Of a DNA stretch of 25,360 nt, positions 4,680 to 25,360 are shown piece by piece. The stretch lies in the IMG/VR virus record IMGVR_UViG_2734482786_000001, positions 1 through 25,360 of that record; one strand, written 5' to 3'. The notes under the pieces are model-generated. The model searched no databases, was not told the DNA's origin, and worked only from the letters and a program-made list of their open reading frames with translations. The stretch's first letter is position 1; each line of letters opens with the position of its first letter. A program made the position numbers and the translations under genes. The stretch is from a virus (lineage: Duplodnaviria > Heunggongvirae > Uroviricota > Caudoviricetes).

Positions 4680-4950
4680 GTTTCAGTTCCTCCATCCGGC
4701 GTTGTCGTTGTCTCAGCAGTGCGCTGGTCTGTTCTGCTTCGGCGTAGAGCCGCGCCTGCTCCCGGTTGTTGGTTTCAGTCAGAATGGACAGGCTGATAAG
4801 CTGGCTGTTGCTCTTTGCCAGTGCCTGGCTTTTGCTCTGCAGCTCGTCTGCCTGCGTGCTGATGGTCTGGCTGGCATCAGCCAGCCGCCACGTCTGCCAA
4901 CCCAGCGCCGCCAGTAATAACGCCAGCATAACCAGCAGCAACCGGTTCAT
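4522..4950 (-). CDS. lysB: LysB, Rz-like inner-membrane spanin (i-spanin)
   Basis: 142 aa with N-terminal transmembrane segment (LLLVMLALLLAALGW) followed by a coiled-coil-like charged region; ATG start overlapping the lysA stop. Confidence 0.7.
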   Translation of the reverse strand: MNRLLLVMLALLLAALGWQTWRLADASQTISTQADELQSKSQALAKSNSQLISLSILTETNNREQARLYAEAEQTSALLRQRQRRMEELKRENEDLRRWADTPLPADIIRLRERPALTGGAAYRQWLSASDAVSAGAGSAAH

Positions 4951-5324: not shown

Positions 5325-5325
5325 T

Positions 5326-5838
5326 TCAGTTTGCTCCCTGTAAACACCAGGCCATCTCCCGCTCACGGCGGTTATCCAGCCCCTGATTAAACACACCTTT
5401 CACATAAACCCAGCGCGGCAACTGTCGGCACGCATCCGCCCAGCGCCGCTGGTTGAGCAATTTCACCAGCGTGGAACTGCAGGCATTGCCTGTCCCCACG
5501 TTGAAGGCAAACGACACCACCGAGTCATACACCTTTTGTGGCGGCTGTTGCTTCACACATCTTTCCAGCGCCCGCTCCACACGCAGCACGTTGGAGATAA
5601 GCCCTTCTGCTGCCTGTCGTTCCGTAATGGTTTTGCCGGGAATGACGCCCGACGTATTACCAATGCCGTCAGTCCATACACCCGCGCTGCACTGATACGG
5701 CTGCAGACGACAGCCTTCGTAATCGGCAATCAGTTTCAGCCCCTCCACGGAGGTGTGAAGCTGCTGAAAACCCGGCAGCGTGGCAGCAATAGCCAGCACG
5801 GCCCCTACAAGGCAGCGTTTAACGATTGATGGATTCAT
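5326..5838 (-). CDS. K: SAR-type endolysin (lysozyme, phage 21 R-like)
   Basis: 170 aa; N-terminal hydrophobic signal-anchor-release segment (CLVGAVLAIAATLPG); E-8x-D-5x-T lysozyme motif region and C-terminal similarity to recalled R21 (…LLRKINQ…RRWTYAGG…REIERE…CLWG). Confidence 0.85.
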   Translation of the reverse strand: MNPSIVKRCLVGAVLAIAATLPGFQQLHTSVEGLKLIADYEGCRLQPYQCSAGVWTDGIGNTSGVIPGKTITERQAAEGLISNVLRVERALERCVKQQPPQKVYDSVVSFAFNVGTGNACSSTLVKLLNQRRWADACRQLPRWVYVKGVFNQGLDNRREREMAWCLQGAN

Positions 5839-6034
5839 AGTCCTCCCGCGAGATCTGCCCGTCGCGCAGAAGCTGGTAGGCTTTGTGTTTGTAGTACCAG
5901 TTGATAGCCAGCATCAGCACACCAATCATCAGGCCGCCCAGCGTTGAGGCATCCTTGATGGACAAATCGCCCAGCCAGGCCAGCACAACGGCGATGCAGT
6001 ACGTGATAAAGGCGCTGATTCGCTCAAGCGTCAT
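5819..6034 (-). CDS. Y: Holin (two-TMD, pinholin-like)
   Basis: 71 aa with two hydrophobic helices and a charged C-terminus; directly upstream of and overlapping the SAR endolysin. Confidence 0.7.
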   Translation of the reverse strand: MTLERISAFITYCIAVVLAWLGDLSIKDASTLGGLMIGVLMLAINWYYKHKAYQLLRDGQISREDYESINR

Positions 6035-6037
6035 AAT

Positions 6038-6241
6038 TCAGTCCCATAGCTGGACGGTCTGCACGGTGGTGGTAGTCGGAATGTCCGGCAGCTCCACCTG
6101 CAGCCCGTGAGGTAAAAAGGGGCCGTATTCGGCAAGCCCCGGATTTGCCTTCAGTACCTGCTCCGTGACACCCTGCGTGCGCCCGTAATGACGCCAGCAA
6201 AGCGCGTCCACCGTGTCATACTGATGCGCACGCACTTTCAT
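6038..6241 (-). CDS. X: Tail protein gpX
   Basis: 67 aa, the same size and position as P2 gpX; start overlaps the L stop (ATGA). Confidence 0.7.
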   Translation of the reverse strand: MKVRAHQYDTVDALCWRHYGRTQGVTEQVLKANPGLAEYGPFLPHGLQVELPDIPTTTTVQTVQLWD

Positions 6242-6705
6242 CAGATAAGCTCCACTGTGCAGTGCGGCGCGTCCTGTACCCGGCTGATGGCCCAGCGGGC
6301 GTCACGCCATAAATCACCGCTGGCTTCCGCCAGTTCCTCGCCCCGCTTCACACCGGATGCCGTGGCGTCATAGTCCTGGTAACGTTCGTTGAGCATGGCG
6401 CGTGCCCAGCAGTAAACCGCGTTGAAATAGTGCTGAATGCGCTCACTTTTGCCGTCCAGCTGTTCCGCCGGAACCTCTGCCAGCGAGGCATACCCCAGCA
6501 TCTGCTGGCGTCTGCGAAACTCATACAGCTCTGCGTTGACCTCCGAAATTGCCGACAGCGCAACCTGCTTTAAACGCGGCTGCGTCACCGTGCCGTCAGT
6601 GCGCATGACACTGCGAAACTCCGACAGGTCCACATCAGGCCAGAACGGCGTATTTCTGATGATTTCCGCCTGTTCCGGTGCCTGTTCTGGCGCAACAAAC
6701 TTCAT
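6241..6705 (-). CDS. L: Head completion/stabilisation protein gpL
   Basis: Track ORF starts at GTG 6768 with no RBS; the ATG at 6705 has AGGAGAAAG upstream. Contains …NTPFWPDVD… resembling P2 gpL. Confidence 0.75.
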   Translation of the reverse strand: MKFVAPEQAPEQAEIIRNTPFWPDVDLSEFRSVMRTDGTVTQPRLKQVALSAISEVNAELYEFRRRQQMLGYASLAEVPAEQLDGKSERIQHYFNAVYCWARAMLNERYQDYDATASGVKRGEELAEASGDLWRDARWAISRVQDAPHCTVELI

Positions 6706-6800
6706 GCTGCTTTCTCCTGAAATAGAGGGCGGTGGACGGGGTTTTGATGTGGCAGTGCCTTTCTCCACCCCGTGCCGCCCGTGCGCGGGGGCACGTTCTG

Positions 6801-7451
6801 TCAGCGGCTGTCATTGCGCAGTCTGCGCTCCAGCTGCTGTTTGTCTTTTTTCACGCCACAGCGGGGATCGAGCTGTAACGCATGGTTGAGATGATTAAGG
6901 GCAGACGCCGGATTGCTTTCACTCAGGACCGCGCCAATCGCTTTATGCAGACGCGCCCGTGACTGGTCCGGCATATCCAGACCGTCTGTCAGCTCCAGCG
7001 TCTGCAGCAACAGATCGGCATCAAAGCCGGTGGTGGCAAGCATTGCGCTCTGCGCGGCGTCTGCCATTTCCTCTGCCAGCACGGTCTGCACGTTGCGGTT
7101 ACCCAGCGGCATCACCCAGCCATGACGCAGGGCATGACGCCCGATCTCCAGCGCTCCGGCATAATCTCCGGCATCAATGCGCCACAGCATCACGTACATC
7201 AGCACGTCATCCTGTTGAGCGCCTCCGGCAGCCAGGACACCCTCTGCCCAGGCGGCGTACTTCGGCAGCAGCTCCACCTTGATTTCCGCTTTTTTGACCG
7301 TGGACTGAACGCCCTTGAGACGGCGGCGGTCTTCCGCCAGTTGCAGCAGCATCAGGTCATAGCCCGATGCGTGGCGAACACTGCCGCCCTCGCGGGCGGC
7401 CTGTTCAGCCTGAACGCGCAGGCGATGCTGCCGTGCGGGACTCAGGCTCAT
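6801..7451 (-). CDS. M: Terminase small (endonuclease) subunit gpM
   Basis: 216-aa ORF with ATG start, between N and L as in P2. Confidence 0.8.
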   Translation of the reverse strand: MSLSPARQHRLRVQAEQAAREGGSVRHASGYDLMLLQLAEDRRRLKGVQSTVKKAEIKVELLPKYAAWAEGVLAAGGAQQDDVLMYVMLWRIDAGDYAGALEIGRHALRHGWVMPLGNRNVQTVLAEEMADAAQSAMLATTGFDADLLLQTLELTDGLDMPDQSRARLHKAIGAVLSESNPASALNHLNHALQLDPRCGVKKDKQQLERRLRNDSR

Positions 7452-7454
7452 GGA

Positions 7455-8513
7455 TTACGCTCCGATTTCGGCTGCGGCGGCGCTGAAATCACCAATCTGG
7501 ATGTTTTCCACCAGTGCGGCGCAGCGGTAGTCCTCAACCACATAGGCTTCGTTAACGGATTCAAAGTTTTCAATCCGGTCACGTTTCGGGTTGTCGATAA
7601 CTGAACGGCGGCGGGTGTCTTCCTGCCAGTAGATGGACAGGTTATCCAGACGGGTGATCAGCAGCGCATTCGGCGGGAAGAACGGCGCACGCACGGCCTG
7701 CAGGCCACCCATGCGTTTCTGACTGATGATCATATCGGCAGCCAGTTTTTCACTGTTTTCCTGCTCTTTGTTGACCAGCGGGAAATACTTGTCAGACAGC
7801 AGTTCACGACCGCAAATCACCACCAGATCGTCATCGTCCTGATAGACCACGTCGATAAGCTCATTAACGGCATCCATCACCACGGCGTCCAGGTTGGCAT
7901 ATTCGCCACCTTTCCCGACTTTCACCGCACCCGGTGTGGTTTCACCGCCCGTGGTGGTGCTGCCCATGACGTGATCCGGTGCATCCTCACGGATTTTCTG
8001 CAACCAGCCTTTATTCACATCCTGCAGTAACGGGTTTTCGCTACGGTTGGAGGTTTTCGCACGCTTCACGCCGTTAAAGCCGATCATGATGCGGTCCAGT
8101 GCCTGACGTTTCACGATGGCGTCACGGATACGCACCTGAAAATCCTGAAACTTCGCCCACAGGTCCAGCTTCGCGTAGGTCAGTACCGTGTCAAAGTTGG
8201 TCTGCTCGCATTTATATTCCACATCGACCATCAGCGTCGGATCGACAGGTTCACGCTCTTTCGCGGTGGTATCAGTGGTTCCGGCAATGGTGCTGCCAAC
8301 TCCCAACCCCAGCAGCTGACCGGACTGCTCAGTCACTGGCGTGACGTTAATCAGCGTCAGGAAAGCGGCGGACTGCTGGATCTGGTCTTCCAATGTCTGC
8401 TGCACGGACGGCTCTACGGTGAACTTGCTGGACAGTTCTTCAACTGCCACACCGTTCAGACGCGCCAGTTGCTGCAGGTAAGCGTTAAAAGCAAAGCGGG
8501 TATTCTTCTTCAT
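7455..8513 (-). CDS. N: Major capsid protein gpN
   Basis: 352 aa; ATG with GGAG RBS; long collinear similarity to P2 gpN as recalled (…FNAYL…KFTVEPSV…LDLWA.FQDFQ.RIR.AI.KRQ…GFNGVKRA…VIISQKR…). Confidence 0.9.
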   Translation of the reverse strand: MKKNTRFAFNAYLQQLARLNGVAVEELSSKFTVEPSVQQTLEDQIQQSAAFLTLINVTPVTEQSGQLLGLGVGSTIAGTTDTTAKEREPVDPTLMVDVEYKCEQTNFDTVLTYAKLDLWAKFQDFQVRIRDAIVKRQALDRIMIGFNGVKRAKTSNRSENPLLQDVNKGWLQKIREDAPDHVMGSTTTGGETTPGAVKVGKGGEYANLDAVVMDAVNELIDVVYQDDDDLVVICGRELLSDKYFPLVNKEQENSEKLAADMIISQKRMGGLQAVRAPFFPPNALLITRLDNLSIYWQEDTRRRSVIDNPKRDRIENFESVNEAYVVEDYRCAALVENIQIGDFSAAAAEIGA

Positions 8514-8529
8514 CAGGTTTTGTGCTCCA

Positions 8530-9363
8530 TCAGCAATTGGTCAGAGTGTCAGCGGGGGCGTTACCGCCTGTTGCACGCTGGCGGTAGTCCTGGCGGCTGT
8601 CTTCTTGGCTCAGCTTGTCCACCAGTTCGTTAAAGGCGGTCTGCTGTGCCTGCAGGGCAGTCTCCAGCTCAGACAGGCGTTCTTCCTGCTCAGACAGGGA
8701 TTTTTCGGTGCGCGCACTCAGGTTCTGCTGCTCAGTGGCGACCAGTTCCACGGCCTTATGCACATCAGAGAACCTGGCGTCATCGGACTGCTCTTTTTTG
8801 GTGAACAGCGCCGTGACACGGGCAAACAGGGACGGTTTGTCATCCTGGATTTCTTCCAGTTCGATCACCGTTTCCTCTGCAGCGGTAAAAAGATTGGCGG
8901 GATTCTGCTTGCGGTTTGCCAGCGGGTTATGGGCTGCACTGGCGCTGAATGTCAGCATTTCAGTGCCCAGACTGGCAGGGTCATCAGTGGCAGCCAGGCC
9001 AACCAGGTAGGCTTTTCCCGTATCAGCGAACTTCGGGCTGACTTCCATAGAGGTGAATAATTTCTGGCCTTTTTTCACCAGCTCCACCAGGGACTCCGTT
9101 GGCTCAACGTCGGCATACAGCGCCATCTTGCCTGCCAGTGGACCTTCCGTGATTTCTTCAGCAAACAGCGCCGTCACCTTGCCGTAGCGGTTAAAGGTGC
9201 TGTCCGGCAGATAAGACTTGATGTGCTCAAGGTTAATCAGCGCGGTATACACCGCCGGGTTGTAGCTGGCTGCCATCTGTTCCAGCCATTCACGCTGGAT
9301 TTCTCGTCCGTCGGTGGTGGCACCTTCCACCCCGATGCGAAAACGCTTTGCTTTCACTGTCAT
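8530..9363 (-). CDS. O: Capsid scaffolding protein gpO
   Basis: 277 aa; …FRIGVEG.T.DGR…INLEH…YLVGLA.TDDPASLGTE… matches the P2 gpO family; C-terminal …ATGG…TNC. Confidence 0.85.
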   Translation of the reverse strand: MTVKAKRFRIGVEGATTDGREIQREWLEQMAASYNPAVYTALINLEHIKSYLPDSTFNRYGKVTALFAEEITEGPLAGKMALYADVEPTESLVELVKKGQKLFTSMEVSPKFADTGKAYLVGLAATDDPASLGTEMLTFSASAAHNPLANRKQNPANLFTAAEETVIELEEIQDDKPSLFARVTALFTKKEQSDDARFSDVHKAVELVATEQQNLSARTEKSLSEQEERLSELETALQAQQTAFNELVDKLSQEDSRQDYRQRATGGNAPADTLTNC

Positions 9364-9441
9364 GAGCCGTGCTCCGTTAGAAAAAACTTACTGGAGCCTT
9401 ATGGTTGCGGTGATGGGGGCAGTGAAACAATGCGCGGTATT

Positions 9442-9459
9442 TGTACCGACAACCACACA
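9442..9459. promoter_or_regulatory. Candidate late-promoter activator site (TGT-N12-ACA) in the divergent O/P intergenic region
   Basis: TGTACCGACAACCACACA lies about 87 bp upstream of the O start codon, consistent with a dyad centred near -55 of a late promoter driving O-N-M-L. Confidence 0.4.
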
Positions 9460-9505
9460 AACCGCAGGCGGGGAAAGCCTTCATTCAAGGCTGTAGGTTT
9501 GTGCC

Positions 9506-11272
9506 ATGAACACCACACTGACACCCGCAGATCTCGATCCCCGTCGGCAGGCCATGCTGCTGTACTTTCAGGGATACCGCGTCGCCCGCATTGCTGAAAT
9601 GCTGGGAGAGAAAGTTGCAACCGTTCACAGCTGGAAAAAACGCGACAAGTGGGGTGACTATGGGCCGCTGGATCAGATGCAGCTCACCACCGCCGCACGC
9701 TACTGCCAGCTCATTATGAAGGAGCACAAAGAAGGGAAAGATTTCAAAGAGATTGACCTGCTGGCGCGCCAGTCGGAACGCCACGCGCGGATCGGCAAGT
9801 TTAACAATGGCGGCAACGAAGCCGACTTAAACCCTAACGTCGCCAACCGCAACAAAGGCCCGCGCCGTCAGCCGGAAAAGAACGTTTTCACCGATGAACA
9901 GATTGAGAAGCTGGAAGAAATCTTCCATTCCTCCATGTTCAACTACCAGCGCCACTGGTGGGAAGCCGGAAAAACCAACCGCATCCGCAACCTGCTGAAG
10001 TCACGCCAGATCGGCGCGACCTTCTATTTTGCCCGTGAAGCCCTGATTGACGCCCTGCTAACCGGGCGTAACCAGATTTTCCTTTCCGCCAGCAAGACTC
10101 AGGCCCACGTCTTTAAGCAGTACATCATCGACTTCGCCAAAGAAGTGGAGGTGGAGCTGAAAGGCGATCCGATGGTGCTTCCTAACGGGGCCACGCTTTA
10201 CTTCCTCGGCACCAATGCCCGCACTGCCCAGAGTTATCACGGCAACCTGTATCTGGATGAATATTTCTGGATACCGAAATTCCAGGAGCTGCGCAAAGTG
10301 GCTTCCGGTATGGCTATTCACAAGAAATGGCGACAAACCTATTTTTCCACGCCATCCAGCCTGACTCATAGTGCTTATCCGTTCTGGTCCGGTGCGCTGT
10401 TCAACCGTGGGCGCAACAAAGCCGACAAGGTGGACATCGACCTGTCCCACAGCAATCTGGCCCCCGGCCTGCTGTGCGCAGACGGGCAATACCGCCAGAT
10501 AGTCACCGTGGAAGATGCGGTGCGCGGCGGCTGTAACCTGTTCGACCTTGACCAGTTGCGCATGGAGTACAGCCCGGACGAATACCAGAACCTGCTGATG
10601 TGCGAGTTTGTGGACGATCTCGCGTCCGTGTTCCCGCTCAGCGAGCTGCAGGCGTGCATGGTGGACAGCTGGGAAGTCTGGACCGACTTTCATGCACTGG
10701 CTCTGCGCCCGTTTGGCTGGCGCGAAGTGTGGATCGGTTATGACCCGGCAAAAGGTACGCAAAACGGCGACAGCGCCGGATGCGTGGTGGTGGCACCGCC
10801 AGCCGTGCCTGGTGGTAAGTTCCGCATTCTTGAGCGTCACCAGTGGCGCGGGATGGACTTCCGCGCCCAGGCTGACGCCATCAAAAAACTGACCGAGCAG
10901 TACAACGTGACCTACATCGGCATCGACTCGACCGGCGTCGGCCACGGGGTTTACGAGAACGTGAAAGCGTTTTTTCCAGCCGTCCGGGAGTTTGTCTACA
11001 ACCCCAACGTTAAAAACGCTCTGGTACTCAAGGCCTACGACATTATCAGCCACCGCCGTCTGGAGTTTGACGCCGGGCACACCGACATTGCGCAGTCATT
11101 CATGGCAATCCGTCGCGCCACCACCGCCAGTGGCAACCGCCCAACCTATGAAGCCAGCCGCAGCGAAGAAGCCAGCCACGCCGATCTGGCCTGGGCAACA
11201 ATGCACGCACTGTTTAACGAACCGCTGCAGGGCGAGTCCGCCAATACCAGCAATATTGTGGAGATTTTTTGA
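9506..11272 (+). CDS. P: Terminase large (ATPase) subunit gpP
   Basis: 588 aa; ATG start; size and position divergent from O as in P2; plus-strand gene pair P-Q. Confidence 0.9.
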   Translation: MNTTLTPADLDPRRQAMLLYFQGYRVARIAEMLGEKVATVHSWKKRDKWGDYGPLDQMQLTTAARYCQLIMKEHKEGKDFKEIDLLARQSERHARIGKFNNGGNEADLNPNVANRNKGPRRQPEKNVFTDEQIEKLEEIFHSSMFNYQRHWWEAGKTNRIRNLLKSRQIGATFYFAREALIDALLTGRNQIFLSASKTQAHVFKQYIIDFAKEVEVELKGDPMVLPNGATLYFLGTNARTAQSYHGNLYLDEYFWIPKFQELRKVASGMAIHKKWRQTYFSTPSSLTHSAYPFWSGALFNRGRNKADKVDIDLSHSNLAPGLLCADGQYRQIVTVEDAVRGGCNLFDLDQLRMEYSPDEYQNLLMCEFVDDLASVFPLSELQACMVDSWEVWTDFHALALRPFGWREVWIGYDPAKGTQNGDSAGCVVVAPPAVPGGKFRILERHQWRGMDFRAQADAIKKLTEQYNVTYIGIDSTGVGHGVYENVKAFFPAVREFVYNPNVKNALVLKAYDIISHRRLEFDAGHTDIAQSFMAIRRATTASGNRPTYEASRSEEASHADLAWATMHALFNEPLQGESANTSNIVEIF

Positions 11273-12303
11273 TGGGAAAGAGTAAGAAGAACCGCGCTGC
11301 GTCGACGAAACAGATCCAGCATAAAAGCCAGACTTCAGCCGAAGCATTCAGCTTCGGTGATCCCGTTCCTGTTCTGGACCGCCGCGAATTGCTGGACTAT
11401 GTGGAATGCGTACAGATGGATCGCTGGTATGAGCCGCCCGTCAGCTTTGACGGACTGGCACGAACCTTCCGCGCCGCCGTGCATCACAGCTCACCGATTG
11501 CGGTGAAATGCAACATTCTGACCAGCACCTACATCCCTCACCCGCTGCTCAGCCAGCAGGCTTTTTCACGTTTTGTGCAGGACTATCTGGTATTCGGTAA
11601 CGCCTACCTGGAGAAACGCACGAATCGATTCGGTGAAGTTATCGCCCTTGAGCCTGCGCTGGCAAAATACACCCGACGCGGATTAGATCTGGATACCTAC
11701 TGGTTTGTGCAATACGGCATGACTACGCAGCCGTATCAGTTCACGAAAGGCAGCATCTTTCATCTGATGGAACCGGATATCAACCAGGAGATCTACGGCC
11801 TGCCCGGTTATCTTTCTGCCATTCCGTCAGCCCTGCTCAACGAGTCCGCCACGCTGTTCCGCCGCAAGTATTACATTAACGGCAGTCATGCAGGCTTCAT
11901 CATGTACATGACCGATGCAGCGCAAAACCAGGAGGATGTGAACAACCTCCGCAATGCGATGAAAAGCGCCAAAGGTCCTGGTAACTTCCGTAACCTGTTT
12001 ATGTACTCGCCTAACGGTAAAAAGGACGGGCTTCAGATTATCCCGTTGTCAGAAGTGGCGGCGAAGGATGAGTTCCTGAATATCAAGAACGTGAGCCGGG
12101 ACGACATGATGGCGGCGCATCGTGTGCCGCCACAAATGATGGGGATAATGCCTAATAATGTCGGGGGGTTTGGGGATGTGGAGAAGGCCAGTCTCGTTTT
12201 TGTTCGTAATGAGTTAATACCATTGCAGAAACGACTAAAGGAACTAAATCACTGGCTTGGTGAGAAAGTAGTTAACTTTAAAACTTATGCCTTAAACTGT
12301 TAA
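11272..12303 (+). CDS. Q: Portal protein gpQ
   Basis: Track ORF starts at TTG 11269; the ATG at 11272 overlaps the P stop. About 343 aa. The last ~35 codons are AT-rich (see findings). Confidence 0.9.
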   Translation: MGKSKKNRAASTKQIQHKSQTSAEAFSFGDPVPVLDRRELLDYVECVQMDRWYEPPVSFDGLARTFRAAVHHSSPIAVKCNILTSTYIPHPLLSQQAFSRFVQDYLVFGNAYLEKRTNRFGEVIALEPALAKYTRRGLDLDTYWFVQYGMTTQPYQFTKGSIFHLMEPDINQEIYGLPGYLSAIPSALLNESATLFRRKYYINGSHAGFIMYMTDAAQNQEDVNNLRNAMKSAKGPGNFRNLFMYSPNGKKDGLQIIPLSEVAAKDEFLNIKNVSRDDMMAAHRVPPQMMGIMPNNVGGFGDVEKASLVFVRNELIPLQKRLKELNHWLGEKVVNFKTYALNC

Positions 12304-12320
12304 AAATTATTATGAAACAA

Positions 12321-12339
12321 GGCGCTTAACATAAGCGCC
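12321..12339. terminator. Bidirectional stem-loop between convergent Q and the DUF262 gene
   Basis: GGCGCTTA-aca-TAAGCGCC hairpin; on the minus strand it is followed by TTGTTTCATAATAATTTTT. Confidence 0.45.
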
Positions 12340-12348
12340 CAATATATA

Positions 12349-14130
12349 TTAGATTATATTATAGGCCTTCGCTGACATAGATAATGTTCTAATCTGAACT
12401 TTTTGGGCATTCCATTCCTCATCGTTAGATGAATACTCATCAATAAACTCATTAACCACCTTAAGGTTTGACTTCTTATACTCGTTTATTTTTTTACTTA
12501 AGCTATCATTTTTACATGATTCATTCAAAGTAAAGCAAAGAGGAAGAAGATTCCCCATTAATCCAACAACCTCTGAGTCAAAACTACTTTGTGCACCAAT
12601 ATGCTCGAGTGAAACTAAGTCTAATTTTAACTCATTAGTTCCTCGCAATTTCTTTTCAAAACGTTCAAAAATATACATTATGAGCTTACGCTGGGAGGCT
12701 TTTTTATTTGTATAAAATAAATTTTTAACAAATGCCTCATTGAATACTTTTTCATTTGGACTTTTCGCAGAAAAGTATGCTATTGCTTCACTAATGGTTG
12801 ATTCGATACTACGTTTATTAGTAGCTTTATCAAGGCTTACTGCTAATACTGAATACTTGGCGTCTATGCCAGAGGGTCTTAATCGGCAAATAGCATTAAA
12901 TCTAAAGTGGAATCTCTCTAAACACATTAGACACTCTATTAAACTTTTTTGCGAAAGACTTCTAGATTTATCTCTTCTTTTTCTTAATAATGACAAAATG
13001 AATGGGCGAGGGATTGAAACATTGAATATTTCAAATGCTTTAAGTGAATTGTAAATATCTCGCTGATCCTGTTGAGGCCAATCATCAATATCTGGAGAAA
13101 TTATCTTACAATATAAATCAACATCTTTATGCAACTCATCCAAAAATGAAATTGCAGTTAATCCATAAACACCATCATTTATCTCTCTTTTAAAGGCACG
13201 GTATAGTTGATCTTCACCTATATAATTAAACTTAGAAAGCCACCAACACCTGACATAATCAACCATTGTAGCGTTACTATCTCTAGCTTCGATGCAATTA
13301 GTAATATAATCCCATTTCTCTTTGGCTTTATCTATTGGATATGTTTCAATACAACTCTGGAAAACTTTATTTTTAATCAGATCAAGGGAGCTTAAGTTTA
13401 TTCCCCTTGCATTCAAAACCTCGAAAATATCATACGCGTCATCTTCCTTGCCTACTGATATCCTTACTAATTTAAGATAATTAGTAACCATATTGTAAAC
13501 GGCATTCAAGCAAAAAAGGTAATCTTCCTTTTTATACTTTACTGCACCGTCACGCAACAAAGAAGAACATAATGCTTTCTTTCCTAGCTTTCTGCTTAAA
13601 TACAACCCAGCATATTGAATCTTTTTATCTTCATCGCAAGTCACATCAGCTTTATGCTCAACTCTATCTTGGAATTTTAGTTTAAAAAAAGCCCTGTCAC
13701 TATTTTTAGAAAGCTTCTCAACTACTGAGTCGCCATTAGAACTGACAGAATTTCTATTGAACGTCTGATTTGCGGTTACGATATATGTTTTAAAAATATC
13801 ATCAGCAAATTCGGCCTTCCCATTTTTTCTTAAAAACCTAGAAATTAAAGAAAGTAGAATTGTAATAACACTGAAACGCTGCTGACCATCAACAATCTCC
13901 AAAACATTATCACTGTCAGCACCAGACAATACAATTGTACCAATAAAGTACTCATTGAATTCAAAGTCATCCCCTTTGGGATTTAATTTTATATTTCTTA
14001 TTATGTCTTGCCACAATTCATCAAGTTGTAACTTTTCCCAACTAAATTCTCGTTGATTCCGTGGAATCACATAACGCTGTTTAACAGAAAGTATATTTTT
14101 AATATTTAAAGGAGTTGCATCAAAATTCAT
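12349..14130 (-). CDS. DUF262/DUF1524 (GmrSD-like) nuclease family protein; candidate anti-phage defence gene
   Basis: N-terminal DUF262 signatures (VIPRNQREFSW, EIVDGQQRF, FEVLNARGINLSSLDLIKN) and C-terminal His-Me/HNH-like DUF1524 signature (SLEHIGAQ…GNLLPL…N). Start set at first ATG 14130 (RBS-like AGGGAA); the track ORF starts at TTG 14181. Strongly AT-rich relative to flanking phage genes. Confidence 0.75.
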   Translation of the reverse strand: MNFDATPLNIKNILSVKQRYVIPRNQREFSWEKLQLDELWQDIIRNIKLNPKGDDFEFNEYFIGTIVLSGADSDNVLEIVDGQQRFSVITILLSLISRFLRKNGKAEFADDIFKTYIVTANQTFNRNSVSSNGDSVVEKLSKNSDRAFFKLKFQDRVEHKADVTCDEDKKIQYAGLYLSRKLGKKALCSSLLRDGAVKYKKEDYLFCLNAVYNMVTNYLKLVRISVGKEDDAYDIFEVLNARGINLSSLDLIKNKVFQSCIETYPIDKAKEKWDYITNCIEARDSNATMVDYVRCWWLSKFNYIGEDQLYRAFKREINDGVYGLTAISFLDELHKDVDLYCKIISPDIDDWPQQDQRDIYNSLKAFEIFNVSIPRPFILSLLRKRRDKSRSLSQKSLIECLMCLERFHFRFNAICRLRPSGIDAKYSVLAVSLDKATNKRSIESTISEAIAYFSAKSPNEKVFNEAFVKNLFYTNKKASQRKLIMYIFERFEKKLRGTNELKLDLVSLEHIGAQSSFDSEVVGLMGNLLPLCFTLNESCKNDSLSKKINEYKKSNLKVVNEFIDEYSSNDEEWNAQKVQIRTLSMSAKAYNII

Positions 14131-14224
14131 ATCATCATTCCCTAGACATGACCATGGGTTGATCGTTAATTTACTTAACAAGATAGATTAAAACAACTAT
14201 TACTAATTCATATCTCAGCGCGCG

Positions 14225-14243
14225 CTCGTATCCCCGCCACGCC
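14225..14243 (-). other. Candidate cos site (19-nt cohesive end of P2/186-type)
   Basis: Minus strand reads GGCGTGGCGGGGATACGAG followed by CGCGCGCTGA; the first 13 nt match the 186 cos (GGCGTGGCGGGGAAAGCAT) as recalled, and the following GCGCGCTGA resembles the P2 left end. Confidence 0.4.
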
Positions 14244-14292
14244 TGCCCGCTTTATGTAGTGGTTTTCATGCACCTGCATGATCTACGCAAAA

Positions 14293-14312
14293 GCCCGCCA
14301 GTTCTGGCGGGC
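14293..14312 (-). terminator. Rho-independent terminator after the tum/DinI-like operon
   Basis: GCCCGCCAG-tt-CTGGCGGGC hairpin followed on the minus strand by TTTTGCG. Confidence 0.45.
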
Positions 14313-14447
14313 CTTAGCAAAAACGATCCTCAAACGATCATGCGATCTCATGCGGCATAGACATGCACTACAGAGCTAACGCCTCGCAAGGGCTCGTTGT
14401 TCAACCTTGCTGACGCCAGAAGCAAGTTCAGACGCCAGCAACGTTTC

Positions 14448-14681
14448 TTAATGCAGCCAGCTGTCGTCTTCCCACACCTTCTGCATAATTTTCATCACTT
14501 GTTTTCTTTCTTCGTCCTGTTGCAGCCCAGTCAGTTCCACACCGTTAGAGCTACCTTTGCGGATACGAATTACCGTTTTTGGATACAGGGGGCGCAGATT
14601 GCGGTAAAGCTCGGATTCAAGGGCGTCCAGGGTAGACTGGCTAATCTTCTGCTCTTTATCGATCATTATTTCAATGCGCAT
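14448..14681 (-). CDS. DinI-like protein (or C-terminal DinI-like domain of a Tum-type antirepressor)
   Basis: Start at MRIEIMIDK… with GAGGTGA RBS; MRIE…DAL..EL…WED.SW pattern matches the DinI family as recalled. The track ORF extends upstream to 14753. Confidence 0.7.
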   Translation of the reverse strand: MRIEIMIDKEQKISQSTLDALESELYRNLRPLYPKTVIRIRKGSSNGVELTGLQQDEERKQVMKIMQKVWEDDSWLH

Positions 14682-15033: not shown

Positions 15034-17448
15034 TTAATACAGGTTTCGCCACTTATCATCTTCCTGCAAACGCTGGTTCCGATAGAAGATACGCAGGCCT
15101 GCTCCTGACGGAATACTGCCGCCGCGAAGGAGTAAATCGACCTCTTTCTCGCTGCCATCAAATCCTCTGGACTTCAGTTCGTAGACGAGCTGCTGTCGCT
15201 GATGGTCTGTAATTCGCTGTTTGTAGTCTTTACGCCGTTTCGGTTTCACCAGGCGTAACCTTGCAGCCAGTTCCCGGCGCTCTTTTTTGCTCATACTGTG
15301 CAGGTAATCGTGCAACTCCTTGTCATCCATGCGGGTAATGTCCGTCCTGGTATCCCCATCAGCTGATTTGTCTTTCCCTTGTTGGTTCAAATTTTCAGCA
15401 AGGGGACAGTTATTGCCACGAGTCCAAGGGGCGCAAGCGCCCTGGTCGGCTGCCGCCTCCTGAACGTCAACGGCTTTACGAACCATTTTCCACTTCACTG
15501 CATGAGTGCAGATCTTGCCCTCTGCAATGGGTGACCAGATGCCATAAATACGAATGCCGTGATCGCCATAGGCGGTCGGCTCTTCGTTGATTTCATAAGC
15601 GGTTCTGATGAGGTGATATTTACGGGGAACCAGTACGCCGCCCTGCTTCATGATGTAGGTGGCAAAACAACCAGCATCAGCAGCAGCCAGAATGGCATCA
15701 AGACGCGGGTTATCCAGTACCGGCGCACCTGCATTTTTGTCCCCCTGTTGCCTTGCCGCCTGACCAGCCAACAATCGCAGTTCACGGTAAGCCTGACGCC
15801 CCGGAATGCCAAAGAAGCGGAATTGCTGAACACGATGCAAAGACGCCCAGGCATTCACGTATTCAGCGTTATCACGCAGAGATTTACCCGTTTCCTTGCT
15901 GATCTCGCCAGCCAGACCACGACCGTCAATGTTCTTACTGATATATTTCGCGATGTAGCTTGTCGGCGTTCCTTTGCGCGGGTTAATCAACTCAGACTTA
16001 AAGCGCGGCCCAGTGTTATTGCCCAGCTCCTCGCGGTCTTCACGGATGGCAAACTTACGCAGTAATGCAGTGATGGCACGGCGGTCTTTTTTGCGCATGA
16101 AACACAACAGGTGCCAGTGAACTGTGCCATCATGATGCGGCTCAGCCACCCGCACGCCATACCAGCGCAACCCGGCTTTGTGCATCGCCTTACGAAATGC
16201 AGCAAACATGCCGACCAGATAATCGCTGCTTTGTCTTACCGTCGCGTTTGTCCAGGTCGGGTTTGGTCTGCCGTTATTTAGCGTGGAATGGAAACGCGAC
16301 GGACAGGTGATAGTGTAGAAAACGGCGCAGTCACCGCGCATTTCCGCGATAAGCTCCAGACCTTTAACACAGGCCATCATCTCATTGCGGCGATGCGCAG
16401 GGTTGCTGCTGCTGGCGTTTACCACATCCTCCATGTCCAGCGTGTCGCCGTCTTCGTTCACCAGTTCATGAGAACGGAAAAACTCCAGCGACTTACGGCG
16501 CTGCTCACGTTTATGCATCACGGCTTCATAGCTGACATAAGGAGATGCTTTTTTGCTGACCAGGCAAACAGCGCGCAACTGCTCTTCCCGCCATTCGCAA
16601 CGCATCTTCCATAATTTCCGATACCACCAGTCGGCGCACAACATACGCGCCAGCGAACCCGGAATGAGTTCATAGGGCACGGGTTTACGGCGGTTTCTTT
16701 TCCGACGGAGTTGCTCAAACGCAGGTGGGATGACATCCAGACGCAGGGTCTCCGCTGCCACCTTTTCCCATGTCTTGCGGATTTCTTCTGGCTTAACGTC
16801 ATCGGTGGCATACAAATCACCACAAGCTGCATCAAGGCACATACTCATATGCGCAGCTACCAGGGTGGACAGGCGTTTCACCTGATCCTGACTCATTTCA
16901 GGCAGGATCAGCAGGCCGTCCAGCCCTTCATGGCTTGCCATAAAGCGAAAAGATGCAGATAGCTGACTGTCGCGTACATGCTCCAGTCGTTCCAGACATG
17001 GCTTAATCGTCTCACGTAAATAGCGGGAATAAGCCTTTGGCCTGCCCAGGCTGCTGAAGTATTCAATACGTTGCATCAGCGGCTTGCTGATATGGGAAGG
17101 CTGGGCGTTGACGTCCGCCAGAATGACCATGTCTGAATTAAAACGCTGCTGCTCATGCGCCAGCTTTGCCCGGCTAATGAGCTTATCCTGCTCCATTTCG
17201 CGCTGGACAGGATCACGTGATTCATTAAAGAAATAACGCTCCCAGACCTGATCACTCAGTGCCTCGCGGCGCAACTGTTCCTGCTCGTTATCGGCAGCGT
17301 ACAGAGTGATCAGGTTTGAAAGCGTAGAAACCGGCGCAACTTCCGCCGGGTCCAGATAAGGGTTAATGGCCTTTTTCGGGCTGTTCCATGAGAATGCTGC
17401 GGCAGCCTCGTTAAAGCCGCAGCAGTTGTTCATATCGGCATGAGTCAT
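15034..17448 (-). CDS. A: Replication initiation protein gpA (rolling-circle endonuclease)
   Basis: 804 aa; HUH-like motif region (…[10 protein letters not shown]…) and active-site Tyr region (…[10 protein letters not shown]…); ATG start overlapping the dam stop. Confidence 0.85.
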
Positions 17449-20497: not shown

Positions 20498-21127
20498 TTG
20501 AAGATTAGTACAGGTGCAAATACGGGAGGGAGAGAGACCATCAAAAGGCTGATGACAGCCTATGGTTTCAACACTCAGATAGCGTTGGTTGAACACCTCG
20601 AAGCATCAAAAAGCACCATGGCAAACAGGATGTTACGTGATAGCTTCCCTGCTGACTGGGTTATTCAATGTGCCCTTGAAACAGGTATTTCTCTTCTTTG
20701 GCTGACAACGGGCCAAGGGGAAATGTATCCTCAAACAGAAGAAAAAAATAAGTTCAAAAACGAGAGTTCACCTACAGTTCGCCCCCTTTCAAAGATAGTT
20801 ATCCCATCAGTAAGGCAGGCAACCATTGAGAACGGAACGCTCGAAGAGATGGGGGATGTTTTCCTTGATCAGACTTTGATACCCGGAAAAGCCGAATATT
20901 GTTTGTACGTCAAAGCTAACGACGGCAATTACATTGTTGATACATCAACAAAACAGCTTAGTAACGGAATTTGGCTCATAGACATCGACGGTATGAAAAA
21001 CATCGTCAAAATTGCGCGCATACCTGGAAACAAAATAGTAGTTAACCAAGATGACACTTCATTTGAATGTTCTGTAGATGATGTGGAAGTCGTAGGACGT
21101 GCAGTCAAAGTAATCAAGAACCTCTAA
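20498..21127 (+). CDS. cI: CI-type immunity repressor (186 CI-like)
   Basis: HTH region …AYGF…CALETGISLLWLTTGQGE… resembles 186 CI. The track ORF starts at TTG 20477 without RBS; TTG 20498 is preceded by GGAGAG at 6-nt spacing. Start uncertain. Confidence 0.75.
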   Translation: MKISTGANTGGRETIKRLMTAYGFNTQIALVEHLEASKSTMANRMLRDSFPADWVIQCALETGISLLWLTTGQGEMYPQTEEKNKFKNESSPTVRPLSKIVIPSVRQATIENGTLEEMGDVFLDQTLIPGKAEYCLYVKANDGNYIVDTSTKQLSNGIWLIDIDGMKNIVKIARIPGNKIVVNQDDTSFECSVDDVEVVGRAVKVIKNL

Positions 21128-21130
21128 CTT

Positions 21131-22150
21131 ATGACCATCAGAAAACAGCCGAACGGAAAATGGTTGTGTGAGTGCTATCCCAATGGACGCAATGGTAAGC
21201 GCGTGCGTAAGCAATTTGCTACCAAAGGCGAAGCTATTGCATTTGAAAGCTTCACAATGGAAGAAGTGAACAAAAAACCATGGCTGGGGGAAAAGGAAGA
21301 TCGGCGACATTTATCAGAATTAATTGAGCTGTGGTATTCCCTGTATGGTCAAACACTCACAGACCCCAAGCGCCTCATGGCGAAACTTAGTATTATCTGT
21401 AATGGTCTAGGCGATCCCATCGCTTCAGAACTGACAGCCGGTGACTTTACGAAATACCGCGAAGCACGGTTAAAAGGTGAAGTACGAAATGAAGATGGCA
21501 CGCTTATGTCGCCCGTTAAGCCCCGCACGGTAAACCTTGAACAGCGCAATCTATCATCTGTTTTTGGTACACTGAAAAAGCTGGGCCACTGGTCAGCCCC
21601 CAACCCGCTTGCCGGGCTGCCAACATTTAAAATTGCTGAGAGTGAATTGGCGTTCCTGACCCCGGAAGAAATTAAACGTCTGCTGGATGCCTGTGCTGAT
21701 TCTCAAAGCTCTAGTCTGCTGACGGTTGCAAAAATATGTCTGGCCACCGGCGCGAGATGGAGTGAAGCCGAAAACCTGCAGGGCCATCAATTATCAAAAT
21801 ACCGGATCACCTACACCAAAACTAAAGGCAAGAAAAACCGAACCGTACCGATATCTCAGGAGCTATATGAAGAACTCCCCAAAAACAGAGGGAAACTATT
21901 CACGCCCTGCAGAAAAGCTTTTGAGCGCGCAGTAAAACGAGCCGGTATAGACCTGCCTGAAGGCCAGTGCACACACGTGTTGCGCCATACATTCGCCAGT
22001 CACTTCATGATGAATGGCGGAAACATATTGGTACTACGCGATATTCTTGGTCACTCTGATATAAAAATGACGATGGTTTATGCTCATTTTTCGCCAGATC
22101 ATTTAGAAGATGCTGTAACAAAAAATCCACTGGCTATGTTGGGATACTGA
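21131..22150 (+). CDS. int: Tyrosine integrase (P2/186 family)
   Basis: 339 aa; C-terminal catalytic region HVLRHTFASH…LGHSDIKMTMVYAH (R…H-x-x-R…Y). Confidence 0.9.
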   Translation: MTIRKQPNGKWLCECYPNGRNGKRVRKQFATKGEAIAFESFTMEEVNKKPWLGEKEDRRHLSELIELWYSLYGQTLTDPKRLMAKLSIICNGLGDPIASELTAGDFTKYREARLKGEVRNEDGTLMSPVKPRTVNLEQRNLSSVFGTLKKLGHWSAPNPLAGLPTFKIAESELAFLTPEEIKRLLDACADSQSSSLLTVAKICLATGARWSEAENLQGHQLSKYRITYTKTKGKKNRTVPISQELYEELPKNRGKLFTPCRKAFERAVKRAGIDLPEGQCTHVLRHTFASHFMMNGGNILVLRDILGHSDIKMTMVYAHFSPDHLEDAVTKNPLAMLGY

Positions 22151-22152
22151 TA

Positions 22153-23184
22153 ATGGAAAAAAGCATTAGCACATTTATGTACCTATCCGTTTTATTAGGT
22201 TGTATATTCTTATTTATAAAATATCGACTTTATGTTCTCGATCATAGAAGCCTGTTCCAACAACCCTTGTTCTGGGCTGCAATAGGCCTACCTTTATTCA
22301 CCAGCCTTTACTTTGGTTCTTTTGTCTGGATAGATAAAATACACTCTTTTAGTCTTACAAGTCACGGTTATGAGAGATTTTTAGATATCTCGAAATTACC
22401 ATTACTCATCCTTGCATCTGCAGTACCTTTAGTTTCAATAGTAAACAACCTACACAGAACCAAACAAACAGAAAAACAGATCTCAGAGGCAGAAAGGAAA
22501 AACAGGGTAGATTTATATTACAACCACATGAAATTTCATCTTGATTTATATAAAAAAATCGAAGGAAAAAGAATAGGCAGCTACTACCCGGTTCAGGAAG
22601 CTCAAGCTGAAGCAATCTACCAACATTTTATAAAACATCCACAAGAACTATATAGAAAAGCATACCCACAATCTACGCCTGATGATTCTCAACAATTAGA
22701 TATTAATGAGCAATTTGTTATTGATTTACACAAATGTTGGGTAGAAATCAACGCAAGACTCAAGCAATTATCCGAGAGTGAAAATCAAATACATCCTACA
22801 GAGGAACTTTGCACAACAAAGATGAGAATATTTGTAGGAGTTATGATTATTTATGAAAAAACTTGTAAACTGTTGTGTTTAGGTGGATTTCATTATAAAA
22901 AGTCATTTGTAATAAATGATAGTTATAATAAATACCAAGTTTATTCACCATTTTATGATTTTGGCACTCTGTACGAATCACTGCAATCCTTAGAAGAGAT
23001 AACCTACGCCTTCTTGGATACTTGCAGAAATGAAGTGGTAAACTTGTACTTCCCTATAGAAGATAAAATTTTGATATATGGTGAAGGGATTCTAGAGAAT
23101 TGGTTCAAGTATTCTCAGTTCTTGATCACTATAGCTTATCAACCCGCCAAGATGTCTCGCTTACCCCAGCTGAGACGCGATTGA
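22153..23184 (+). CDS. Membrane-anchored protein of unknown function (cargo between int and att)
   Basis: 343 aa; ATG 2 nt after the int stop; three predicted N-terminal transmembrane helices, then a ~230-aa soluble domain with no motif recognised by eye; markedly AT-rich. Confidence 0.6.
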   Translation: MEKSISTFMYLSVLLGCIFLFIKYRLYVLDHRSLFQQPLFWAAIGLPLFTSLYFGSFVWIDKIHSFSLTSHGYERFLDISKLPLLILASAVPLVSIVNNLHRTKQTEKQISEAERKNRVDLYYNHMKFHLDLYKKIEGKRIGSYYPVQEAQAEAIYQHFIKHPQELYRKAYPQSTPDDSQQLDINEQFVIDLHKCWVEINARLKQLSESENQIHPTEELCTTKMRIFVGVMIIYEKTCKLLCLGGFHYKKSFVINDSYNKYQVYSPFYDFGTLYESLQSLEEITYAFLDTCRNEVVNLYFPIEDKILIYGEGILENWFKYSQFLITIAYQPAKMSRLPQLRRD

Positions 23185-23300
23185 TGATGGCGACATTTTG
23201 GCGGCAGAGCTTTAAAAACAGATAAAACTGTCAAACACCACATAACACTAAAGTATTGTTTTTAAACATAAATCATTATTTTTTCTGTAGTAAAAATGGT

Positions 23301-23345
23301 ATGTAGGAATTTCGGACGCGGGTTCAACTCCCGCCAGCTCCACCA
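23301..23345 (+). repeat. Prophage attachment-site core: 45-nt duplicate of the ssrA (tmRNA) 3' end
   Basis: ATGTAGGAATTTCGGACGCGGGTTCAACTCCCGCCAGCTCCACCA matches the 3' terminus of E. coli tmRNA as recalled; upstream flank is AT-rich phage DNA, not tmRNA body. Confidence 0.75.
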
Positions 23346-23505: not shown

Positions 23506-25360
23506 TCAGAACGACCAGTTCACACCAGCTACCGCGTTCCACGGGGATTCCACACCGGCACTATGGCTATACCCCACCCCAAGATGCCCGCTTAACGTAC
23601 TGCTGAATGAGGCTTTAATACCTGCCTGGTATATTCCACGTCTGCCCGACAAATAATTGACGAAATTACCGTCACTATTCACTTTCACCCGGTTATCATC
23701 GACAAATTCTTTGCGCACAGCCGCCTTCAGCCACGGCTCAACTTCCATACCGTTCCCCAGACGCATGTTGTAACTCAGCGTTGCGCCCAGTTCACGATAT
23801 ATACTGCGGGTATCGACTGATTTCGATTTCATGCCATTGGATAAATGATATTCGGGGTTATCAGCGGTGAACCCCGTTAACGATGCATACGGCGTCAGGT
23901 TCCAGTTACCATCGGTAAATCGCATCCCGGTTTCAATGTGACCGCCCAGCCCGTTGCTGTGGTAACTGCCATTGGCGGCTCCACCGCTGCTCATTTTACC
24001 TGCTACGTTACTTTTAAAACGGTTCAGCTTCACGACACCGTCCAGATAGAAACCACTTTCATGTTCCCAACTGGCATAGCCGCCCAGAGAATAACTGCCC
24101 ACACTGCCATGTCCTCCGCGATCAAAACCGATATGTGAATGGGAATAGCCCATAAAAGCGCCTAGCGTGGTAATTCCTTCAGGAATATCATTACGGCTGT
24201 CGATCCCCACTGTCATTCCGGTCAGCGTCTGCTCAAACCCGGCACCCGCATCGGTGGTGACATTATTACGGGTGTTATACGTCGCCCCCCAGACATTATT
24301 GTTGTGTGGACTCGCTTTCATTATGTTCAACCGCTCGCGAATACTGTTTAGCTCAGCATCAAATACCAACGGTAATGTTGCTGCCATATTGAGTACGGCT
24401 GCCGTAGAAGGCGTAATGCGTTTCTCCGGAACGGGTGTCGGCGTTGGATCGGGAGTAGGGTCTGGTTTTGGATTTGGGTCTGGCTTTGGATCGGGTTTTG
24501 GGTCTGGCTTTGGATTTGGGATGGGGTCCGGGTTGGGTTTGACATCATTGGTCAGGTTCCAGTTGCTGTTGCCGTCACTTTTCAGGACATACTCATAGGT
24601 CCCAAGATCAACGAAACCGCCGGTATTGCCCAGCGTAAACGAAGCATCCCCTCCCCCTGTTTTCACCAGCGTCATCGCGTCGTCAGACTGTGGGCTGACG
24701 CCGGTATCCTGAACAAAGATTTTAAAATTACCAGTGGCGTTGTTGTTGACGACCAGTTGATCGCCCCGGGAGCCTGCAACGTTGGTATGCAGGTAGAAAT
24801 TACCGCTACCGGAAAGTTCATTGGTTGTCAGCGTATTGTAGATACCGTTAGTTGTGGCAGGCGCTGCTGTTTGTGCTGACAAATAAACATCACCGTCGTT
24901 GAGTAGCAAACTGTTTACTCTATATTCGCAGTTGCTGGTACCTGCACAGGAATTATTGCTGTTAAGCCAGACACTGCCCCGGCTGGCAGCCGTCAGGTCG
25001 GCAAGCGTGGTATCGACGCCATTTCCCAGAGTCAATGTCGCGCTATCGGTAATCCGGACCGCCCCTTCGAGTTTAACTGGCGTAACATTATCCCGTGGCG
25101 TCATTAACGACAGGCTTCCTGTCGCGCCACTGACCGATGCATCCGCCAGCGTACCTGCGTAGACGATTGCCGTACCGCCAGCGACCTGGAGATCTTCTGC
25201 CCGGGCCAGAGCCTGAAACTCATCTTTTGACCGCCCAAGGGTATATTGCCCGCCAGAGTTAACCTTTGTGGCGGAGTCCTGACCCAGGTTTTGCATTGCC
25301 CCACCCTTGCCAACCGTGGAGTCGCGAGCTTCGGTACCTGCTAAGGAAGGTGCGAACAAG
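23506..25360 (-). CDS. Autotransporter (type Va) outer-membrane protein, C-terminal part; gene continues beyond window end (host gene, possibly YpjA-like)
   Basis: C-terminal beta-barrel-type domain ending …VNWSF, Pro-rich PDPKPDP linker, Ser/Thr/Gly/Asn-rich passenger; no start codon context in window. Confidence 0.8.
   Translation of the reverse strand, partial: LFAPSLAGTEARDSTVGKGGAMQNLGQDSATKVNSGGQYTLGRSKDEFQALARAEDLQVAGGTAIVYAGTLADASVSGATGSLSLMTPRDNVTPVKLEGAVRITDSATLTLGNGVDTTLADLTAASRGSVWLNSNNSCAGTSNCEYRVNSLLLNDGDVYLSAQTAAPATTNGIYNTLTTNELSGSGNFYLHTNVAGSRGDQLVVNNNATGNFKIFVQDTGVSPQSDDAMTLVKTGGGDASFTLGNTGGFVDLGTYEYVLKSDGNSNWNLTNDVKPNPDPIPNPKPDPKPDPKPDPNPKPDPTPDPTPTPVPEKRITPSTAAVLNMAATLPLVFDAELNSIRERLNIMKASPHNNNVWGATYNTRNNVTTDAGAGFEQTLTGMTVGIDSRNDIPEGITTLGAFMGYSHSHIGFDRGGHGSVGSYSLGGYASWEHESGFYLDGVVKLNRFKSNVAGKMSSGGAANGSYHSNGLGGHIETGMRFTDGNWNLTPYASLTGFTADNPEYHLSNGMKSKSVDTRSIYRELGATLSYNMRLGNGMEVEPWLKAAVRKEFVDDNRVKVNSDGNFVNYLSGRRGIYQAGIKASFSSTLSGHLGVGYSHSAGVESPWNAVAGVNWSF

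Follow-up and report, generated by a model that had tools for sequence, protein, structure and literature searches.

We examined a 25,360-nucleotide stretch of Caudoviricetes DNA (positions 1 to 25,360 of IMG/VR record IMGVR_UViG_2734482786_000001; the whole stretch is called the window here), which is closed by the right end of a 186/P2-like prophage that has ssrA as its integration site. Between the integrase gene (int) and the attachment site (att) core of this prophage lies ORF343, an open reading frame (ORF) of 343 amino acids (aa) for a membrane protein whose family, here called family X, is undescribed, although the int-att slot that it occupies has been described. ORF343 is a maintained coding gene under purifying selection. 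We give a probability of about 0.5 to its having an anti-phage role of some kind, by which it would protect the lysogen. This reading is based on the slot, the operon, the architecture of the protein, its split into conserved and variable parts, and a soluble domain in which no catalytic constellation is conserved. A preliminary description of the locus, made from the letters alone, had proposed an AT-rich cargo gene, possibly for abortive infection (Abi) or superinfection exclusion. That interpretation is partly supported, and family X appears to be a good candidate for a new phage-exclusion protein.

A maintained gene in the lysogenic operon

As the preliminary description had it, the 343-aa ORF lies between int, whose TGA stop ends at 22150, and the att core at 23301-23345. 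Its ATG start stands 2 nucleotides (nt) beyond the int stop, and the cargo slot in the window runs from 22151 to 23186. The features at this end of the window are the following:

20498..21127, + strand: CI-type immunity repressor gene (cI), first gene of the lysogenic operon (Pfam Phage_CI_repr and Phage_CI_C; RefSeq coding sequence in an identical locus)
21131..22150, + strand: tyrosine integrase gene, ssrA-specific and 186-like (Pfam Int_N and Phage_integrase)
22153..23184, + strand: cargo ORF343, the 343-aa membrane protein of family X (RefSeq WP_001676483.1, hypothetical protein)
23187..23300, + strand: attP arm, which starts TGGCGACA-N4-TGGCGGCA and is the right edge of the cargo slot (alignment of 7 prophages)
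23301..23345, + strand: att core, the last 45 nt of ssrA (transfer-messenger RNA, tmRNA) with the CCA end, a displaced fragment and no gene (identity to the 3' end of Escherichia coli ssrA)
23506..25359, - strand: bacterial flank outside the prophage, the 3' part of the ypjA/ehaD autotransporter gene

For the repressor, the mechanically called ORF starts at 20477 and the RefSeq coding sequence at 20498. The DNA past the att core has 100% identity to the ssrA-downstream flank of other strains.

The GC content of ORF343 is 0.342 (0.31 at third codon positions), while int has 0.469 and the structural half of the window (1-12000) reaches 0.564, which bears out the description of this DNA as far more AT-rich than the phage backbone. 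By our own arithmetic, in which about 7% of random codons at 34% GC are stops, 343 open codons would arise by chance with a probability of about e^-26. Comparison of ORF343 with two homologues of 76-80% identity gave 0.12-0.14 nonsynonymous (pN) and 0.68-0.77 synonymous (pS) differences per site and a dN/dS of about 0.03-0.07, a ratio that says nothing about an arms race, since dS is saturated and every region looks purifying.

Between int and ORF343 in the window we found no sigma-70-like promoter and no convincing terminator, so that co-transcription and translational coupling with int is the simplest reading. ORF343 most likely shares a transcript with cI and int, is coupled to them in translation, and hence would be made in the lysogen.

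An Rfam match to a tmRNA gene at 23169-23345 (52 bits, gathering score 47) was rejected as an artefact of the 45-nt att core and chance 5' pairing. In 177 nt it spans model positions 1-374, of which 267 are skipped, and ARAGORN found no tmRNA. A 177-nt 'ssrA' annotated by RefSeq and the Prokaryotic Genome Annotation Pipeline (PGAP) overlaps the last codons of ORF343 in 18 of its 20 E. coli copies, and this call looks like a recurrent annotation artefact at the attR of ssrA-integrated prophages.

The int-att slot in sister prophages

Of 5426 E. coli genomes, 214 have the integrase type of the window (at least 81% DNA identity). We read the int-att interval in 15 E. coli prophages, sampled at regular intervals from the ranked int matches and with copies of ORF343 excluded, and classified the cargo with a family X hidden Markov model, BLASTP and NCBIfam. 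Seven occupancy states were found among the 15:

Family X, 4 of 15: FDAARGOS_1287, MS1665, KL53 and 58-3 (frameshifted)
Family Y, a second uncharacterised soluble protein of about 400 aa, 2 of 15: S88 and MS20649
Anti-phage dCTP deaminase NF041025 (425.5 bits against a cutoff of 400), 3 of 15: E47, 2020N21-246-1 and LF4-1
GapS1 NF047931 (428.5 bits against a cutoff of 320), 2 of 15: PCP06235 and MFDS1019527
Another uncharacterised gene, of 222 aa, 1 of 15: W12-1
ISKpn26, 1 of 15: TBE6
Empty, 2 of 15: 2824 and TUM13936

Known anti-phage genes fill the slot in five of these 15 prophages, and all slot cargo genes have a GC content of 31-35%. The survey agrees with the view of ORF343 as accessory AT-rich cargo in a variable slot. 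A 2026 census of P2-like prophages treats the int-att interval as a minor defence hotspot with 3% of the systems found in P2, and reports that six of eight uncharacterised genes of P4 hotspots were protective (NAR 2026, PMC13586616). The slot has thus been described before, and of the preliminary suggestion of an undescribed system only the gene family remains.

The two empty prophages also show the int 3' end abutting attP, which had been described as the normal state in P2-family phages. In both, the attP arm follows directly after the int stop, about 115 nt before the core. The arm opens with a direct repeat, TGGCGRCA-N3-4-TGGCGRCA (window 23187-23210), which is kept in all seven aligned prophages, and the same arm follows every cargo type. 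The TGGCGRCA repeats are probably integrase arm-type sites. Many homologues of ORF343 end in 'GDTLAAE' because their ORFs read into these repeats; the alternative that such C-termini are integrase 3' remnants was ruled out by comparison with the cargo-free prophages. The ORF of one homologue (P0023) extends further, to an integrase-like 'HLEDVVTKNPL' tail, a hint of recombination scars.

Family Y, located at L015 4525-5748 in S88, L044 3527-4732 in MS20649 and L002 9191-10381 in E. hormaechei, has a GC content of 31-35% and 38-48% identity among these three copies, and no match in Pfam, PADLOC or NCBIfam. It is alone in the slot in E. coli and directly 3' of the family X gene in E. hormaechei. 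By eye, it carries a putative RES-domain-like string (RFSVSGLPCLYLGTS..CWQE). Many strains have a second integrase of another type (Arm-DNA-bind_3/Phage_int_M) directly past the att core (loci L003, L017, L019, L034-L036, L038-L041 and L044), so ssrA often holds tandem elements; several of these have defence-like cargo, for example an AAA ATPase with HNH, LmuB_C or kinases.

Spread and genomic contexts of family X

The exact ORF343 gene is present in 20 of 5426 complete E. coli genomes, with all copies at least 99.7% identical and host strains from human, poultry and cattle sources. A megablast search of ORF343 against 50,697 phage records gave no match. At the protein level, a first search found 48 homologues, and a profile search of 1.84 billion cluster representatives (50% identity) found 955 at E <=1e-3 and 197 at E <=1e-30; full-length homologues number in the hundreds. 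Named sources are Escherichia, Citrobacter, Klebsiella, Enterobacter, Kosakonia, Kluyvera, Cronobacter, Salmonella, Serratia, Dickeya, Pectobacterium, Rahnella, Cedecea and Erwinia, and the family members in all of them are annotated 'hypothetical protein'. When E. coli was surveyed at the DNA level with the conserved block, only 27 genomes were returned because family X is too divergent in its DNA, and an alignment-based search for related loci returned only four loci.

The sole library match of ORF343 is PHROG phrog_17460, which covers residues 1-343 of 343 (E 5e-203) and has no functional annotation. Pfam, NCBIfam and PADLOC gave no match, and ORF343 is in none of the defence libraries searched. 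A sequence profile search against chains of the Protein Data Bank (PDB) returned designed helix bundles only, and the best Foldseek hit in BFVD had an E-value of 0.6. In the libraries and structures covered by our remote homology and structure searches, ORF343 has no homology to a known housekeeping, structural or regulatory protein, consistent with the cargo interpretation of the preliminary description. Literature searches found neither the accession nor a paper naming family X.

All 14 Enterobacterales contexts of homologues that we inspected (26-80% identity) are the lysogenic operon of a 186-like prophage, with Apl/Rha-like, CII, Fil, DUF5347, DUF2732, TraR and GpA genes as neighbours on the opposite strand. 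In 13 of the 14 the order is cI-int-X, and the start codon lies right at the int stop or overlaps it (E. hormaechei, C. freundii, three further loci, Kosakonia, two Citrobacter loci, Klebsiella phage Kp4865-2, P0003, P0002, Klebsiella and E. coli). In Serratia marcescens (loci L031-L033, 5001-5990), family X lies between cI and int, which argues that the constant element is the cI-int lysogenic operon and not the int-att junction. Rousset et al. 2022 noted this cI-int interval as a hotspot of K139-like Vibrio phages (PMC9122126). The only context seen outside a prophage operon is that of a 381-aa member with 37% identity in Pseudomonas chlororaphis EA105 (locus L020 5845-6990), just downstream of umuD-umuC; neither an integrase nor P2 genes lie within 6 kb of it. 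One further locus (L010 4070-4999) has, besides family X after int, an extra 309-aa gene between cI and int, whose product has transmembrane (TM) segments at its N-terminus and a C-terminus with weak similarity to WYL (Pfam E 0.004; PADLOC RTasWYL E 2.5e-4).

Protein architecture and conservation

Kyte-Doolittle hydropathy peaks (19 residues) at aa 3-30 (maximum 2.15), 42-60 (1.56) and 76-101 (2.06) agree with AlphaFold2 helices at aa 2-23, 38-61 and 81-88/90-135, and the three N-terminal TM helices of the preliminary description are found by both methods, with TM2 borderline on hydropathy alone. The full-length model has a predicted local distance difference test score (pLDDT) of 90.2 and a predicted template modelling score (pTM) of 0.71, and the model of aa 99-343 has a pLDDT of 93.3 and a pTM of 0.89. 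The predicted TM3 runs unbroken into a 45-residue stalk helix (aa 90-135), which belongs to a predicted alpha/beta domain with three more long helices and three beta-hairpins. This C-terminal domain (about 245 aa) is as unrecognisable as first noted, with no match in Pfam, NCBIfam or PADLOC. The gene can be divided as follows:

22165..22233, + strand: TM1, about aa 5-27, variable (hydropathy, AlphaFold2 helix 2-23, TM count in 112 members)
22237..22446, + strand: conserved two-TM hairpin (alignments, AlphaFold2)
22447..22536, + strand: juxtamembrane polar 'neck' of the stalk helix, aa 99-128, with the signature NxHRTxQTxxQI-x5-KNxxDxxxxHxK
22537..23181, + strand: variable, probably cytoplasmic alpha/beta domain, aa 129-343, with helices on the stalk and three beta-hairpins, without a recognisable relative

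The hairpin consists of a probably cytoplasmic LxxQxLFW motif, TM2 at aa 38-60 (P47, G55, W59), a short, probably periplasmic loop (G72, F76, ISKLP) and TM3 at aa 81-98 (P83, L87, P92). Upstream of it, 0, 1 and 2 TM-like segments occur in 12, 84 and 16 members, respectively, of a set of 112. The constant unit is therefore the two-TM hairpin with its neck. The forms with zero or two extra helices place both termini on the same side of the membrane, and a 230-aa domain without a signal peptide points to the cytoplasm; in the three-helix form, the positive charges at K23, R25 and R32 and at R102, K104 and K108 fit an N-out/C-in arrangement. Together, these features suggest that ORF343 is probably an inner-membrane protein with its N-terminus out and C-terminus in. 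Its soluble domain is non-basic (31 K+R, 32 D+E).

Conservation was computed over the 112 diverse members and is greatest in the neck. Four residues are invariant (L34, F40, H101 and Q105), and 18 more are at least 90% conserved (Q37, P47, W59, G72, F76, P83, L87, R102, T103, T106, Q109, I110, K116, N117, D120, H125, K127 and Y167). Mean pairwise identity is 0.55-0.74 over aa 79-128 (TM3 and neck), 0.39-0.50 over aa 29-78 and 0.16-0.26 over aa 129-343. The signature HR[TS]xQ[TS]xxQ is found in 225 of the 250 family X proteins collected. The polar residues of the neck recur every 3-4 positions (101/102, 105/106, 109/110, 116/117, 120, 123-125 and 127), a spacing that would line them up as a single polar face, about 40 Å in length, directly under the membrane. 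Conserved positions in the C-terminal domain (P163, L166, Y167, W196, I199, C238 and D289) include no catalytic-looking constellation, which favours a binding role over an enzymatic one. A PLD-like motif noted by eye, H125-x-K127-xxx-D/E, was rejected: its spacing is off by one, and the residues are on a long helix with no PLD fold.

A 279-aa protein of the Vibrio inovirus VALG_phi6 (locus L025 4447-5286) has the hairpin in common with family X up to 'FRTKQ' (hhalign probability 97%) and differs in its C-terminal part; related Vibrio prophage elements were also seen. This suggests that the hairpin may be a mobile membrane module that was reused in a Vibrio inovirus.

Proposed function and alternative explanations

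If ORF343 is anti-phage, it might act as follows. The lysogen would make the protein from the cI-int operon. The role of effector or transducer would fall to the two-TM hairpin together with the invariant polar neck (HRTxQTxxQ...KNxxD....HxK), and specificity would come from the fast-diverging cytoplasmic alpha/beta domain, which would recognise a component of the incoming phage. On recognition, the neck and TM hairpin would pack or oligomerise differently, and the membrane would then be compromised by ion leak or depolarisation, aborting the infection. This specific route, in which the variable domain recognises the phage and the hairpin and neck compromise the membrane in abortive infection, is our preferred working model, and taken as a whole it is less likely than not to be correct. 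Three TM helices with a probably cytoplasmic domain are typical of single-protein membrane Abi or exclusion factors. Weak, scattered matches of single members to profiles of KwaA and of 2TM effectors from the cyclic oligonucleotide-based antiphage signalling system (CBASS) add a little. The defence candidacy raised in the preliminary description has gained circumstantial weight from the dCTP deaminase and GapS1 genes in the same slots of sister prophages. The gene is no one-off insertion and belongs to a large family linked to cI-int.

Several points count against an anti-phage role or the proposed route. Guilt by association in a hotspot is suggestive only, and two other occupants of the slot are also uncharacterised. 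Docking of a conserved partner, from host or phage, would explain the invariant polar neck equally well. The 2TM effector matches are single-member and sub-significant at the family level, and ORF343 itself has none. The TM helices lack marked amphipathicity, and pore formation is not evident in the sequence. The C-terminal domain, too, is under strong purifying selection, and no trace of positive selection was seen, although dS is saturated. Finally, the family X copy in E. coli 58-3 (locus L017 4526-5510) is frameshifted into ORFs of 182 and 154 aa, so the gene is dispensable to the prophage and can decay in some lysogens.

An inner-membrane protein encoded in a lysogenic operon could also act at entry, as superinfection exclusion of the P22 SieA, T4 Imm or HK97 gp15 type, in which DNA translocation over the inner membrane is blocked and the cell is not killed. 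The periplasmic loop and TM hairpin are conserved as if they touched a conserved entry machine, and the K139 exclusion gene glo reportedly lies near cI and int. K139-family P2-related phages have glo as an immunity/exclusion gene (PMC4870250). We nevertheless consider exclusion at entry unlikely, because two thirds of the protein is the most variable, cytoplasmic domain, which would be odd for action on the periplasmic face, because only about 20 residues would be exposed to the periplasm, and because no Pfam similarity to the Sie, Imm or Cor families was found. A lysogenic-conversion factor unrelated to phages, with a part in envelope physiology, stress tolerance or colonisation, is less probable still. 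The function of family X is wholly uncharacterised, its hosts come from humans, poultry and cattle, and the int-att junction is the classic site of the conversion genes gtr and oac in Shigella and Salmonella phages. However, Pfam and NCBIfam show no similarity to GtrA, GtrB, GtrC, Oac or envelope enzymes (Acyl_transf_3 appears only as noise at E 1e-3 in two members), the slot alternates with bona fide anti-phage genes, and the family is tied to the phage lysogeny operon over many genera.

The close linkage to int, in which nearly all members have a start codon touching or overlapping the int stop and the gene always lies in the cI-int operon, would also suit a membrane-tethered regulator of the phage's own integration, excision, immunity or induction. 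Such a regulator is hard to reconcile with the absence or replacement of family X in most sister prophages that have near-identical cI, int and attP, the frameshift in 58-3, the P. chlororaphis homologue by umuDC without int, and the occurrence of part of the module in an inovirus, and we regard it as very improbable. A membrane-anchored HEPN ribonuclease (RiboL-PSP-HEPN-like) that degrades RNA on infection is largely refuted and would be the least probable of these explanations. ORF343 has no PF18735 match, the best homologue reaches 25.1 bits against a gathering score of 28.4, and 3 of 40 members in one set and 1 of 112 in another have a match. No Rx4-6H pair is conserved; the conserved polar residues are H101, R102, Q105, Q109, K116, N117, D120, H125 and K127.

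Returning to an anti-phage role, a broader proposal can be made, to which we give somewhat less than even odds. Family X may be a new, widespread single-protein anti-phage system that extends over about a thousand 50%-identity clusters in Enterobacterales with Pseudomonas outliers. It would combine a membrane effector module not recognised before with a novel-fold cytoplasmic sensor of interchangeable specificity; the module would have been reused by filamentous Vibrio phages, and the cI-int operon of 186-like phages would serve as a dedicated expression platform. If protective, family X would be a common defence family that current defence finders miss, with a high-confidence novel fold, and the cI-int operon and int-att slot of 186-like prophages would be a place to mine, with family Y and the 222-aa gene as further occupants of the slot. 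If there is no protection, ORF343 is an ordinary prophage gene. The invariant neck and the variable cytoplasmic domain offer direct handles on the mechanism. Because the integrase type occurs in about 4% of complete E. coli genomes and family X is apparently its commonest cargo in our sample, an effect on phage susceptibility would be relevant to phage therapy and phage typing.

A second AT-rich island in the prophage

A second AT-rich island lies at 12000-14500 (GC 0.32-0.43), flanked by the replication gene (15034..17448, - strand) and, on its other side, by the portal/terminase part, and is the classic P2 old/tin hotspot. An ORF of 610 aa in it (12349..14181, - strand) matches PADLOC HEC-06 (E 3e-73) and Orf5/SspE-like profiles, so the prophage probably has a second, recognisable defence candidate.

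Comparison with known systems

Lambda RexB, SieB, P22 SieA and K139 Glo are membrane or envelope proteins that are expressed with the repressor in the lysogen and exclude other phages. ORF343 differs from them in size, in topology and in its large variable cytoplasmic domain, and Pfam-based searches detected no homology to any of the four. CBASS 2TM effectors (PADLOC 'Effector 2TM' and '2TM_IV') resemble family X in having a two-helix hairpin followed by a cytoplasmic helix. Four family X proteins (3 of the 112 members and that of FDAARGOS_1287) match these profiles weakly, at E 4e-5 to 5e-3, and the matches could reflect hydrophobic composition; ORF343 has no PADLOC 2TM match, and no SLATT family is among the Pfam matches of family X. 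Unlike a CBASS operon, the ORF343 locus has no cyclase, SAVED domain or other nucleotide sensor, and its neighbours are only int and the att site.

In position, ORF343 corresponds to the int-att hotspot of P2-like prophages in the census, from the int stop to the attP arm and moved with the phage (PMC13586616). Sister prophages hold recognised dCTP deaminase and GapS1 genes in this slot. The census catalogues recognisable systems (PMC13586616), whereas family X is unseen by PADLOC, NCBIfam and Pfam, and no mention of it was found in the main article.

In overall plan, ORF343 is like lactococcal AbiP and the Staphylococcus aureus prophage protein PdpSau, which are also encoded by prophages or mobile elements and have an N-terminal membrane anchor with a cytoplasmic domain (PMC10127798). 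No sequence or fold similarity to either was found: each of those two has a single TM helix and an OB-like nucleic-acid-binding domain, whereas ORF343 has the two-TM hairpin, the polar neck and a novel alpha/beta domain. PdpSau leads to membrane depolarisation on infection (PMC10127798) and is the model for the mechanism by which ORF343 might act.

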